From Escherichia coli (GTDB lineage: Bacteria; Pseudomonadota; Gammaproteobacteria; Enterobacterales; Enterobacteriaceae): a stretch of DNA of 64,000 nt. A model generated the notes under the pieces. The model saw nothing but the letters and a program-made list of their open reading frames with translations. It searched no databases and was not told where the DNA came from. Below, one piece after another: positions 24,707 through 48,573 of this stretch. Where the stretch lies: the NCBI RefSeq assembly GCF_003334335.1, contig NZ_QOWQ01000001.1, one strand, 5' to 3'. The stretch's first letter is position 1, and each line of letters starts with the position of its first letter. The position numbers and the translations under genes were made by a program.

Positions 24707-26440
24707 GTGAAACAACAGATACAACTTCGTCGCCGTGAAGTCGATGAAACGGCAGACTTGCCCGCTGAATTGCCTCCCTTGCTGCGCCGTTTATACGCCA
24801 GCCGGGGAGTACGCAGTGCGCAAGAACTGGAACGCAGTGTTAAAGGTATGCTGCCCTGGCAGCAACTGAGCGGCGTCGAAAAGGCCGTTGAGATCCTTTA
24901 CAACGCTTTTCGCGAAGGAACGCGGATTATTGTGGTCGGTGATTTCGACGCCGACGGCGCGACCAGCACGGCTCTAAGCGTGCTGGCGATGCGCTCGCTT
25001 GGTTGCAGCAATATCGACTACCTGGTACCAAACCGTTTCGAAGACGGTTACGGCTTAAGCCCGGAAGTGGTCGATCAGGCCCATGCCCGTGGCGCGCAGT
25101 TAATTGTCACGGTGGATAACGGTATTTCCTCCCATGCGGGGGTTGAGCACGCTCGCTCGTTGGGCATCCCGGTTATTGTTACCGATCACCATTTGCCAGG
25201 CGACACATTACCCGCAGCGGAAGCGATCATTAACCCTAACTTGCGCGACTGTAATTTCCCGTCGAAATCACTGGCAGGCGTGGGTGTGGCGTTTTATCTG
25301 ATGCTGGCGCTGCGCACCTTTTTGCGCGATCAGGGCTGGTTTGATGAGCGTAACATCGCAATTCCTAACCTGGCAGAACTGCTGGATCTGGTCGCGCTGG
25401 GGACAGTGGCGGACGTCGTGCCGCTGGACGCTAATAATCGCATTCTGACCTGGCAGGGGATGAGTCGCATCCGAGCCGGAAAGTGCCGTCCGGGGATTAA
25501 AGCGCTGCTTGAAGTGGCAAACCGTGATGCACAAAAACTCGCCGCCAGCGATTTAGGTTTTGCGCTGGGGCCACGTCTCAATGCTGCCGGACGACTGGAC
25601 GATATGTCCGTCGGTGTGGCGCTGTTGTTGTGCGACAACATCGGCGAAGCGCGCGTGCTGGCAAATGAACTCGATGCGCTAAACCAGACGCGAAAAGAGA
25701 TCGAACAAGGAATGCAAATTGAAGCCCTGACCCTGTGCGAGAAACTGGAGCGCAGCCGTGACACGCTACCCGGCGGGCTGGCAATGTATCACCCCGAATG
25801 GCATCAGGGCGTTGTCGGTATTCTGGCTTCGCGCATCAAAGAGCGTTTTCACCGTCCGGTTATCGCGTTTGCGCCAGCAGGTGACGGTACGCTGAAAGGT
25901 TCCGGTCGCTCCATTCAGGGGCTGCATATGCGTGATGCGCTGGAGCGATTAGACACACTCTACCCTGGCATGATGCTGAAGTTTGGCGGTCATGCGATGG
26001 CGGCGGGTTTGTCGCTGGAAGAGGATAAATTCAAACTCTTTCAACAACGGTTTGGCGAACTGGTTACTGAGTGGCTGGACCCTTCGCTATTGCAAGGCGA
26101 AGTGGTATCAGACGGTCCGTTAAGCCCGGCCGAAATGACCATGGAAGTGGCGCAGCTGCTGCGCGATGCTGGCCCGTGGGGGCAGATGTTCCCGGAGCCG
26201 CTGTTTGACGGTCATTTCCGTCTGCTGCAACAGCGGCTGGTGGGCGAACGTCATTTGAAGGTGATGGTCGAACCGGTCGGCGGCGGTCCACTGCTGGATG
26301 GTATTGCTTTTAATGTCGATACCGCCCTCTGGCCGGATAACGGCGTGCGCGAAGTGCAACTGGCTTATAAGCTCGATATCAACGAGTTTCGCGGCAACCG
26401 CAGCCTGCAAATTATCATCGACAATATCTGGCCAATTTAG
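24707..26440 (+). CDS. recJ: Single-stranded-DNA-specific 5'-3' exonuclease RecJ
   Basis: ORF track 24707..26440, 577 aa, GTG start; DHH motifs (VVGDFDADGATS, VTDHH). Confidence 0.9.
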   Translation: MKQQIQLRRREVDETADLPAELPPLLRRLYASRGVRSAQELERSVKGMLPWQQLSGVEKAVEILYNAFREGTRIIVVGDFDADGATSTALSVLAMRSLGCSNIDYLVPNRFEDGYGLSPEVVDQAHARGAQLIVTVDNGISSHAGVEHARSLGIPVIVTDHHLPGDTLPAAEAIINPNLRDCNFPSKSLAGVGVAFYLMLALRTFLRDQGWFDERNIAIPNLAELLDLVALGTVADVVPLDANNRILTWQGMSRIRAGKCRPGIKALLEVANRDAQKLAASDLGFALGPRLNAAGRLDDMSVGVALLLCDNIGEARVLANELDALNQTRKEIEQGMQIEALTLCEKLERSRDTLPGGLAMYHPEWHQGVVGILASRIKERFHRPVIAFAPAGDGTLKGSGRSIQGLHMRDALERLDTLYPGMMLKFGGHAMAAGLSLEEDKFKLFQQRFGELVTEWLDPSLLQGEVVSDGPLSPAEMTMEVAQLLRDAGPWGQMFPEPLFDGHFRLLQQRLVGERHLKVMVEPVGGGPLLDGIAFNVDTALWPDNGVREVQLAYKLDINEFRGNRSLQIIIDNIWPI

Positions 26441-26530: not shown

Positions 26531-27629
26531 ATGTTTGAAATTAATCCGGTAAATAATCGCATTCAGGACCTCACGGAACGCTCCGACGTTCTTAGGGGGT
26601 ATCTTTGACTACGACGCCAAGAAAGAGCGTCTGGAAGAAGTAAACGCCGAGCTGGAACAGCCGGATGTCTGGAACGAACCCGAACGCGCACAGGCGCTGG
26701 GTAAAGAGCGTTCCTCCCTCGAAGCCGTTGTCGACACCCTCGACCAAATGAAACAGGGGCTGGAAGATGTTTCTGGTCTGCTGGAACTGGCTGTAGAAGC
26801 TGACGACGAAGAAACCTTTAACGAAGCCGTTGCTGAACTCGACGCCCTGGAAGAAAAACTGGCGCAGCTTGAGTTCCGCCGTATGTTCTCTGGCGAATAT
26901 GACAGCGCCGACTGCTACCTCGATATTCAGGCGGGGTCTGGCGGTACGGAAGCACAGGACTGGGCGAGCATGCTTGAGCGTATGTATCTGCGCTGGGCAG
27001 AATCGCGTGGTTTCAAAACTGAAATCATCGAAGAGTCGGAAGGTGAAGTGGCGGGTATTAAATCCGTGACGATCAAAATCTCCGGCGATTACGCTTACGG
27101 CTGGCTGCGTACAGAAACCGGCGTTCACCGCCTGGTGCGTAAAAGCCCGTTTGACTCCGGCGGTCGTCGCCACACGTCGTTCAGCTCCGCGTTTGTTTAT
27201 CCGGAAGTTGATGATGATATTGATATCGAAATCAACCCGGCGGATCTGCGCATTGACGTTTATCGCGCGTCCGGCGCGGGCGGTCAGCACGTTAACCGTA
27301 CCGAATCTGCGGTGCGTATTACCCACATCCCGACCGGGATCGTGACCCAGTGCCAGAACGACCGTTCCCAGCACAAGAACAAAGATCAGGCCATGAAGCA
27401 GATGAAAGCGAAGCTTTATGAACTGGAGATGCAGAAGAAAAATGCCGAGAAACAGGCGATGGAAGATAACAAATCCGACATCGGCTGGGGCAGCCAGATT
27501 CGTTCTTATGTCCTTGATGACTCCCGCATTAAAGATCTGCGCACCGGGGTAGAAACCCGCAACACGCAGGCCGTGCTGGACGGCAGCCTGGATCAATTTA
27601 TCGAAGCAAGTTTGAAAGCAGGGTTATGA
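26531..27629 (+). CDS. prfB: Peptide chain release factor 2, translated with a programmed +1 ribosomal frameshift at codon 26
   Basis: Frame from ATG 26531 reads [25 protein letters not shown] then hits in-frame TGA at 26606; the +1 frame continues [11 protein letters not shown]... and is the ORF-track frame 26748..27629; GGQ motif present. Confidence 0.9.
26594..26609 (+). promoter_or_regulatory. prfB: prfB autoregulatory +1 frameshift site (internal Shine-Dalgarno plus CTT TGA C slippery/stop context)
   Basis: AGGGGG at 26594-26599, 3 nt spacer, CTT at 26603-26605, TGA at 26606-26608, C at 26609. Confidence 0.9.
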
Positions 27630-27638
27630 GGAACCAAC

Positions 27639-29156
27639 ATGTCTGAACAACACGCACAGGGCGCTGACGCGGTAGTCGATCTTAACAATGAACTGAAAAC
27701 GCGTCGTGAGAAGCTGGCGAACCTGCGCGAGCAGGGGATTGCCTTCCCGAACGATTTCCGTCGCGATCATACCTCTGACCAATTGCACGCAGAATTCGAC
27801 GGCAAAGAGAACGAAGAACTGGAAGCGCTGAACATCGAAGTCGCCGTTGCTGGCCGCATGATGACCCGTCGTATTATGGGTAAAGCGTCTTTCGTTACCC
27901 TGCAGGACGTTGGCGGTCGCATTCAGCTGTACGTTGCCCGTGACGATCTCCCGGAAGGCGTTTATAACGAGCAGTTCAAAAAATGGGACCTCGGCGACAT
28001 CCTCGGCGCGAAAGGTAAGCTGTTCAAAACCAAAACCGGCGAACTGTCTATCCACTGCACCGAGTTGCGTCTGCTGACCAAAGCACTGCGTCCGCTGCCG
28101 GATAAATTCCACGGCTTGCAGGATCAGGAAGCGCGCTATCGTCAGCGTTATCTCGATCTCATCTCCAACGATGAATCCCGCAACACCTTTAAAGTGCGCT
28201 CGCAGATCCTCTCTGGTATTCGCCAGTTCATGGTGAACCGCGGCTTTATGGAAGTTGAAACGCCGATGATGCAGGTGATCCCTGGCGGTGCCGCTGCGCG
28301 TCCGTTTATCACCCACCATAACGCGCTGGATCTCGACATGTACCTGCGTATCGCGCCGGAACTGTACCTCAAGCGTCTGGTGGTTGGTGGCTTCGAGCGT
28401 GTATTCGAAATCAACCGTAACTTCCGTAACGAAGGTATTTCCGTACGTCATAACCCAGAGTTCACCATGATGGAACTCTACATGGCTTACGCAGATTACA
28501 AAGATCTGATCGAGCTGACCGAATCGCTGTTCCGTACTCTGGCACAGGATATTCTCGGTAAGACGGAAGTGACCTACGGCGACGTGACGCTGGACTTCGG
28601 TAAACCGTTCGAAAAACTGACCATGCGTGAAGCGATCAAGAAATATCGCCCGGAAACCGACATGGCGGATCTGGACAACTTCGACTCTGCGAAAGCAATT
28701 GCTGAATCTATCGGCATCCACGTTGAGAAGAGCTGGGGTCTGGGCCGTATCGTTACCGAGATCTTCGAAGAAGTGGCAGAAGCACATCTGATTCAGCCGA
28801 CCTTCATTACTGAATATCCGGCAGAAGTTTCTCCGCTGGCGCGTCGTAACGACGTTAACCCGGAAATCACAGACCGCTTTGAGTTCTTCATTGGTGGTCG
28901 TGAAATCGGTAACGGCTTTAGCGAGCTGAATGACGCGGAAGATCAGGCGCAACGCTTCCTGGATCAGGTTGCCGCGAAAGACGCAGGTGACGACGAAGCG
29001 ATGTTCTACGATGAAGATTACGTCACCGCACTGGAACATGGCTTACCGCCGACAGCAGGTCTGGGAATTGGTATCGACCGTATGGTAATGCTGTTCACCA
29101 ACAGCCATACCATCCGCGACGTTATTCTGTTCCCGGCGATGCGTCCGGTAAAATAA
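27639..29156 (+). CDS. lysS: Lysyl-tRNA synthetase (constitutive)
   Basis: ORF track 27639..29156, 505 aa; [31 protein letters not shown]; class II aaRS motifs. Confidence 0.95.
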
Positions 29157-29176
29157 GCATTACGTTATGCTCACAA

Positions 29177-29201
29177 CCCCGGCAAATGTCGGGGTTTTTT
29201 T
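29177..29201. terminator. Intrinsic terminator downstream of lysS (abuts idi stop)
   Basis: CCCCGGCAAATGTCGGGG hairpin followed by TTTTTTT. Confidence 0.75.
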
Positions 29202-29997: not shown

Positions 29998-31446
29998 TTA
30001 TTCTCCATGCTCATTTTTCTTCAGCTTGCGCATCAGAAGCCACATACGTACTGTCCTGACTTTTAAATCTTTATCAGAGACGGATTCCTTCACCAGGTCA
30101 GCATGATGCTGATAGCCATTAAAGAAGACGTTCAGCACAACGGCGCTAAGGGTTGCGAGCATAATGCCGCTATGTAGCAGCGGTTGCAGTACGGCCGGTA
30201 ACTTAGAAAAGAAATCGTGAGAGAGCGTCGGAGTCATGCCAACGCCGAGACTGATCGCCACAATATAGAGGTTGTAACGGTTGGTGGTGTAGTTACAGCG
30301 CGACAGAATTCGAATCCCTGTCGCCAGTACCATGCCGAACATCACTAGACCAGCGCCGCCCAGCACAAATTGCGGAATGGAGGCTACCAGCACCGCCATT
30401 TTTGGCACCATGCCAAACAGGATTAATATAATTCCCGAAGAAATACACACCCAGCGGCTATGAACGCGCGTCACGCTAACCAGGCCAACGTTTTGAGAAA
30501 ATGACGTGTGGGGGAAGCTGTTAAACGTGCCGCCTATCATTGTCCCTACGCCATCGACACGCAGCCCGCGAATAATATCGTGCGAAGAGAGTTTACGACC
30601 GACTATTTCACCCAGTGCCAGGAACATCCCCATCGACTCGATAAACACGATGATTAACACGGCAGTCATGGTCAGAATGGAAACGGGATCGAAAATCGGC
30701 ATACCAAACGACATCGGCGTAACAATCGCAAACCATGAAGCATCATGTAGCCCGGATAAATTGACTTCATTCATCATCCACGAAAGTAAAAAGCCAAATA
30801 CAATCCCCAGTAATACGGCGACGTTGGACATAAATCCTTTCGCATAGCGAGTAATGAGCAAGATAAAAATTAAGACGGCAAAGGAGATACCTAAATAAAC
30901 GGGATTACCATATTGCGGATTCCCTTTACCTCCGGCGGCCCAGTCAATACCCACCTGAATGATGCTAAGCCCGATAGAAGTAATAACCACACCGGTAACC
31001 AGTGGCGGGAATAAAGGCATCAAGCGACCGATAAGTGGCGCTAATAATGTGGTGATAAAACCCGCGGCGATAGTGGCACCAAATATCCCCAGCAGGCCGA
31101 TATCCGGGTTCATCCCAATGGCTATCATTGGTGTTACAGCAGCAAAGGTCACCGACATAATCACCGGCAGGCGGATCCCCATAAAGCGGCCGATACCGAT
31201 ACATTGCAATAATGTGACGATCCCGCAGCAAAAGAGATCCGAGCTAATGAGCATCGCAATAGCTTCTTTTGAGAGGCCCAGTCGGTCACCAATCATAAGA
31301 GGAACAGCGACTGCACCTGCGTACATGACAAGGACGTGTTGCAGACCGAGTATGATCAGCTTTCCTGGTGATAATATGCGGTCAACCTCATCAGTTGGGC
31401 GGTCTTGCCCAGAAGATGAGGGAAGTTGGGAATCTATGGCGCTCAT
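29998..31446 (-). CDS. uacT: Nucleobase:cation symporter-2 family uric acid transporter
   Basis: ORF track 29998..31575 (-); start set at internal Met (MSAIDSQLPSSSGQDRPTDE..., 482 aa) preceded by AAGGAGAAACACTG; NAT/NCS2 polytopic membrane protein. Confidence 0.85.
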   Translation of the reverse strand: MSAIDSQLPSSSGQDRPTDEVDRILSPGKLIILGLQHVLVMYAGAVAVPLMIGDRLGLSKEAIAMLISSDLFCCGIVTLLQCIGIGRFMGIRLPVIMSVTFAAVTPMIAIGMNPDIGLLGIFGATIAAGFITTLLAPLIGRLMPLFPPLVTGVVITSIGLSIIQVGIDWAAGGKGNPQYGNPVYLGISFAVLIFILLITRYAKGFMSNVAVLLGIVFGFLLSWMMNEVNLSGLHDASWFAIVTPMSFGMPIFDPVSILTMTAVLIIVFIESMGMFLALGEIVGRKLSSHDIIRGLRVDGVGTMIGGTFNSFPHTSFSQNVGLVSVTRVHSRWVCISSGIILILFGMVPKMAVLVASIPQFVLGGAGLVMFGMVLATGIRILSRCNYTTNRYNLYIVAISLGVGMTPTLSHDFFSKLPAVLQPLLHSGIMLATLSAVVLNVFFNGYQHHADLVKESVSDKDLKVRTVRMWLLMRKLKKNEHGE

Positions 31447-31515
31447 CAGTGTTTCTCCTTTCGCCCGCCAGAGTAAAAAGCAACCGTTTACGTTAATGAA
31501 ACTGTCTAAACACAT

Positions 31516-31530
31516 GCTCGTGGAGTGCCA
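31516..31530 (-). promoter_or_regulatory. Candidate sigma54 (-24/-12) promoter upstream of uacT
   Basis: Reverse strand reads TGGCAC-TCCAC-GAGC: GG and GC at canonical 10-nt spacing, about 70 nt upstream of the uacT start codon. Confidence 0.3.
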
Positions 31531-31881
31531 GTTTTTGCGAGGAAGGGGAGTTAGAGACAGGAATTGCGGAGGCAATCACATAATCGTGGTTAAACCACGA
31601 AAATGAGAAGAGAACCTGACAATGGAATTATCTGTAATTTTCTCATATTGATATTTCATTAATCATTCTGGCATGTCGCACTCTCGCATTTAATCGTTTT
31701 TATCTGGATAGCGCTCTTTTGATCGGCAATGTTGAAATAATGAAAGCGGCATAGATTGAGGGGCAATAATTTGAACTCAGTCGCAAAATTATAATTAAAA
31801 CGGTCATGCTACCTAATATATGCCCGTTTATTGCATCGCGAAATTTGAGAAGACATAACTCATTAAATGAAAGGGATGCAA

Positions 31882-48526: not shown

Positions 48527-48573
48527 CGGCCCGGGTATTCCGGGTTACTGAAAGGATATCCATTGAGGTTGGT

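Follow-up and report, generated by a model that had tools for sequence, protein, structure and literature searches.

An Escherichia coli prfB locus with an intact programmed frameshift site and the Ala246 form of release factor 2, probably from a close relative of K-12

The 64-kb stretch of E. coli DNA analyzed here (referred to as the window) contains prfB, the gene for release factor 2 (RF2), on its plus strand. The gene neighbors are, in order, dsbC, recJ, prfB, and lysS, followed by the convergent gene idi. The features of the gene and its immediate surroundings are the following:

24707-26440, recJ, upstream of prfB (open reading frame [ORF] list)
26531-27629, plus strand, prfB, the E. 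coli RF2 gene
26531..26605, plus strand, prfB segment 1, codons 1 to 25 in frame 0 (translation; joined from two pieces by RefSeq at the homologous position)
26607..27629, plus strand, prfB segment 2, codons 26 to 365 in the +1 frame (translation, TIGR00020, and matches to RF2 in the PDB)
27144..27152, plus strand, SPF tripeptide, residues 205 to 207, the stop codon recognition motif of RF2 (translation)
27267..27269, plus strand, codon 246, GCG for Ala; ACG for Thr in MG1655 (translation, alignment)
27279..27287, plus strand, GGQ motif, residues 250 to 252, which drives peptidyl-tRNA hydrolysis (translation)
27639..29156, plus strand, lysS, starting 9 nucleotides (nt) downstream of the prfB stop (ORF list; annotation of the homologous region)
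29175..29196, plus strand, terminator-like hairpin with a T-run after lysS (consensus scan only)

The ATG at 26531 opens prfB in frame 0, which meets a premature in-frame TGA at codon 26, and the +1 frame is open through to 27629, with its TGA stop at 27627-27629. When 26531-26605 and 26607-27629 are joined with T26606 omitted, the product is an RF2 of 365 amino acids. This joined protein scored 525.9 bits with the NCBIfam model TIGR00020 (prfB), for which the cutoff is 370, and ∼305 bits with RF1 models, which is under their cutoffs; E. coli RF2 chains from the PDB matched it along its full length. RefSeq labels the homologous coordinates of other genomes “prfB, programmed frameshift” and joins them from two pieces. 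As pointed out in the initial annotation, the ORF list shows only the downstream frame of the gene, as a 293-amino-acid frame (26748..27629) that starts at an internal ATG. Almost all of prfB is also covered by an antisense open frame of 334 amino acids (26592..27596, minus strand), which we set aside as a shadow ORF of this gene.

Elsewhere in the window, the Rfam scan gave gathering-level matches to 6S RNA (ssrS, 6647-6830, minus strand), to the SibC antitoxin RNA (5848-5998, minus strand), with ibsC opposite, to naRNA4, a REP-derived element (20341-20418, minus strand), and to a tRNA at the glyU position (63756-63826, plus strand), all of them as the MG1655 annotation predicts. Beyond idi, the ORF list has uacT at 29998..31575 (minus strand) with 525 amino acids from a TTG, compared with the annotated UacT of 482 amino acids; the MG1655 start of uacT corresponds to window position 31446, and the longer ORF is merely an upstream in-frame extension. 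The genome-wide K-12 markers (rph-1, the rfb lesions, the ilvG frameshift, IS positions, and lambda/F status) all fall outside the window; in MG1655, IS2H sits just past its end.

The frameshift cassette, AGGGGG-TAT-CTT-TGA-C, spans 26594-26609 on the plus strand and is made up of four elements:

26594..26599, plus strand, internal Shine-Dalgarno (SD)-like AGGGGG, the frameshift stimulator (sequence; motif definition in PMC12421855)
26600..26602, plus strand, TAT, the 3-nt spacer that separates the slippery codon from the SD-like element (sequence)
26603..26606, plus strand, slippery CTT-T, with CTT at 26603-26605 and T26606 formally skipped (sequence; mechanism from established knowledge)
26606..26609, plus strand, in-frame TGA at codon 26 (26606-26608) followed by C26609, a weak TGAC stop context (sequence)

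The initial annotation had described this cassette as intact, and every part that it named can be read at these positions. In the 64-kb window, AGGGGGNNNCTTTGAC has a single occurrence, compared with 0.01 expected from shuffles, and all 11 genomes compared share the same cassette, AGGGGGTATCTTTGAC. At gathering thresholds, no Rfam family matched at the prfB frameshift site. The promoter scan showed no convincing σ70 match upstream of prfB and a single internal match, which was below the shuffle expectation. The E. coli prfB cassette is the type example of the frameshift motif. A survey of 12,753 bacterial genomes, 64% of which have the prfB motif, defined it as an AGGGGG-like SD element with CTTT 3 nt downstream, then TGA, and then C (PMC12421855); each element of the window cassette fits this consensus, and there is no difference between the two.

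The mechanism proposed for this site follows that of the extensively studied, identical site, all of whose elements are present here. After translation of 25 codons, the ribosome would arrive at the UGA of codon 26 in its weak UGAC context. With plentiful RF2, termination would take place at this UGA and a 25-amino-acid peptide would be released, while limiting RF2 would cause the ribosome to pause at UGAC. The AGGGGG, located 3 nt upstream of CUU, would then pair with the 16S anti-SD sequence across a spacing that is too short to allow a relaxed complex, and the P-site tRNA-Leu would slip from CUU to UUU, with GAC decoded next in the +1 frame. Such a slip would yield the full-length RF2 of 365 amino acids, the net result being negative feedback on the RF2 level. 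Given the identity of the cassette with the experimentally studied E. coli site, we infer that both frameshifting and its response to the RF2 level would operate in the source organism of the window.

Residue 246 sits in the RF2 domain that reaches the peptidyl-transferase center. Counted across the shift on the joined protein of 365 amino acids, the local context is YRASGAGGQ with GGQ at residues 250 to 252, which places Ala246 four residues ahead of GGQ and agrees with the residue count given in the initial annotation. The same cassette and the same gene context (dsbC-recJ-prfB-lysS with convergent idi) are found in MG1655 (b2891, NP_417367.1), whose prfB is identical to that of the window at 1,098 of 1,099 nt. 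The sole difference is at position 27267, where the window has G and MG1655 has A, so that codon 246 is GCG (Ala) in the former and ACG (Thr) in the latter; MG1655 does not share the YRASGAGGQ reading, and the outcome that would have refuted the initial annotation was not seen. This confirms its statement that the K-12 laboratory lineage carries Thr246. The literature likewise gives Thr246 for the RF2 of K-12 and Ala for that of other E. coli (PMC5373646, PMC9997739), and the description of Thr246 as the less active allele is found in PMC5373646. According to that work, K-12 strains have Thr246 in place of the canonical Ala or Ser, and their RF2 is poorer in peptidyl-tRNA hydrolysis and almost completely dependent on methylation of the GGQ motif (Q252). 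The RF2 of the window corresponds to RefSeq WP_001701073.1, the “RF2-B” of the same work (PMC5373646), and nothing in prfB differs. Ala246 is the wild-type residue of E. coli RF2 and, by this identity with a gene that has been studied, would represent its more active form; the Thr that takes its place in most K-12 strains weakens catalysis.

To see how the two alleles are distributed, we searched 5,426 complete E. coli genomes by megablast with 55-mers centered on the polymorphic position 27267. Since every 28-base seed within such a 55-mer spans the central base, a match requires the allele in question. The search with the K-12 allele (A) matched 341 of these genomes. When these records were sampled evenly down the list, all 60 that were inspected looked like K-12 laboratory derivatives, including MG1655, DH5alpha, DH1, DH10B-type strains, BW25113, C600/EC600, J53, JM109, MC4100, and HMS174, as well as ER strains, XL10-Gold, transconjugants in such recipients, and records whose chromosomes have a K-12-like size. 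The window allele (G) was present in at least 4,075 of the genomes, O157:H7 among them. The remaining 1,010 genomes were seeded by neither 55-mer, reflecting further differences nearby; four of these, E2348/69, EC42405, EC02, and DFK.1, picked from among those of low identity, have GCA (Ala) at codon 246 and are annotated with the same RF2 accession as the window, WP_001701073.1.

The RF2 protein of the window is identical to that of nine other strains across phylogroups (WG1, NCM3722, G6/7, NCTC9038, REL606, E2348/69, EC42405, EC02, and DFK.1), whose prfB genes have 0 to 22 nucleotide differences from it, all synonymous. The gene is 100% identical over its 1,099 nt in the window, WG1, NCM3722, G6/7, NCTC9038, and many others, and among the genomes compared, only MG1655 has an amino acid change in RF2. 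The window RF2 is thus the species-wide, strongly conserved form of the protein, and Thr246 is derived. The Thr246 of MG1655, W3110, and EMG2 is a substitution of the laboratory lineage, caused by a single G-to-A change, and the window carries the ancestral allele.

The initial annotation had concluded from Ala246 that the window probably stems from outside K-12, with E. coli B given as one example. The latter does not hold. A B-type strain of the REL606/BL21 lineage would account for the RF2 protein, which is identical in REL606 and has Ala246, but REL606 prfB has 4 synonymous differences from that of the window, and over 58.6 kb the two sequences differ by 475 mismatches and 6 gap openings (99.18% identity). 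The entire 64-kb window, in contrast, aligns gap-free with MG1655 (NC_000913.3, 3062812..2998813, reverse strand) with substitutions at only 8 positions, corresponding to 99.987% identity. We therefore rejected a B-type origin, the least probable of all the origins considered.

A second reading assigns the window to K-12 in the broad sense, as a stock of the WG1/NCM3722 type that never acquired A246T, in which case Ala246 would carry no information about its origin. Both of these K-12 stocks have Ala246 and a prfB without any nucleotide difference from that of the window (23932-25030 of the compared regions), and they differ from the window by only 7 substitutions in 49.8 kb. Moreover, Thr246 is listed for EMG2, MG1655, and W3110, and WG1 is described as a distinct K-12 branch similar to NCM3722 (PMC9997739). 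Consistent with that report, Ala246 in WG1 and NCM3722 indicates that A246T is a change within K-12, acquired along the EMG2/MG1655/W3110 branch. Ala246 alone, which is found in WG1, NCM3722, and also NZ_CP025268.1 (see below), thus does not exclude K-12, and as the sole ground for a non-K-12 origin it falls away. The initial annotation had also suggested checking other lineage-diagnostic positions in the window, and three independent single positions (listed without strand) separate it from MG1655, WG1, and NCM3722:

30634, uacT, synonymous: C in the window, G6/7, NCTC9038, and REL606; T in MG1655, WG1, and NCM3722
46418, ygfK, synonymous: T in the window, G6/7, NCTC9038, and REL606; C in MG1655, WG1, and NCM3722
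52360, hyuA codon 142: Met, C on the plus strand, in the window, G6/7, NCTC9038, and REL606; Ile, T, in the K-12 stocks

Given that the window shares its alleles at these sites with the natural phylogroup-A isolates G6/7 and NCTC9038 and with REL606, the K-12 alleles are derived, which places the window outside the K-12 clade. Resting on three sites within 64 kb, this placement is supported, and it is on these sites, rather than on Ala246, that the proposed non-K-12 origin can stand. WG1 and NCM3722 carry the MG1655 alleles at all three, and if the window descended from K-12, three reversions or a regional replacement through recombination would be required, which makes an origin in a K-12 stock improbable. 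Ile142 of the phenylhydantoinase HyuA in MG1655, WG1, and NCM3722 is in itself a K-12-specific amino acid change, and the RefSeq accessions of HyuA differ by the allele at residue 142 (WP_001264442.1 versus WP_001264452.1).

The same three sites bear on a further explanation, in which the window derives from an engineered or laboratory-evolved MG1655 in which Ala246 was restored, as in work on RF1 deletion or recoding. A possible precedent is NZ_CP025268.1, a record labeled K-12 MG1655 (Boston) that has Ala246 together with TAG-to-TAA changes at the equivalents of window positions 26440 (the recJ stop), 47075, and 48526. Judging by these three changes, the record appears to be a genomically recoded derivative of the C321 type under the MG1655 name. 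Several other point differences also set it apart from MG1655, as does an indel near window position 48555; only differences at positions before this indel were used. The fixing of RF2 for RF1 removal has been described, RF1 being removable where RF2 is more active than the K-12 Thr246 form (PMC10521639). In the window, however, the recJ stop is still TAG (26438-26440), and the alleles at 30634, 46418, and 52360 are not those of K-12. We consider an engineered MG1655 origin very improbable, more so than one in a K-12 stock.

Among the complete genomes, ST10-like isolates of phylogroup A, among them G6/7, NCTC9038, LAU-OXA, and FORC_081, come closest to the window. In a megablast search with 25 kb of the window (15000-39999), they showed ∼4 mismatches, all at sites private to the window, and no complete genome gave an identical match over this segment. 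Judged by these sequence comparisons, the window sits among such ST10-like isolates as a very close sister of K-12. In NCTC9038, gcvP (11174-14046 of the compared region) is annotated as frameshifted and shows a gap of 1 base against the window sequence, probably an assembly error rather than biology.

The window has four private substitutions among its 8 differences from MG1655:

16378, gcvP D869E, 55-mer found in 1 of 5,426 complete E. coli genomes
18534, bglA N206, synonymous, 55-mer found in 0 of 5,426 genomes
29376, idi T125S, 55-mer found in 0 of 5,426 genomes
37391, xanQ G358S, 55-mer found in 0 of 5,426 genomes

Two of the four are transversions and three change an amino acid, a share that is unusual for natural variation; mutagenesis, laboratory passage, or assembly errors might have produced them. 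The one other carrier of the gcvP allele, 2022CK-00450, has a different background. We rejected it as the source, given that many of its neighboring genes have other protein accessions, and for the same reason the shared gcvP allele would be a coincidental recurrence. A more specific version of the origin proposed above has the window coming from the nearest-sister lineage of K-12, one absent from the 5,426 complete genomes and perhaps mutagenized or long passaged, or else affected by assembly errors; we regard this as speculative and rather unlikely.

Taken as a whole, we interpret the region, with a probability of about 0.9, as a canonical E. coli prfB that heads the prfB-lysS gene pair, has a functional-looking frameshift site, and comes from a non-K-12 phylogroup-A source. 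There is nothing new in the prfB locus itself, and all of it is already published: descriptions of the frameshift and of the A246T polymorphism go back decades, and the division between WG1 and EMG2 within K-12 was published in 2023. Residue 246 of RF2 is nevertheless a useful quick marker, in that Thr246 points to the MG1655/W3110/EMG2 branch of K-12. The phenotypes that go with Thr246 are weaker termination at UGA and UAA, dependence on methylation by PrmC, and an RF1 that is hard to delete. Ala246 stands for normal termination, and results tied to the defective RF2 of K-12 should not be assumed for the organism from which the window derives.
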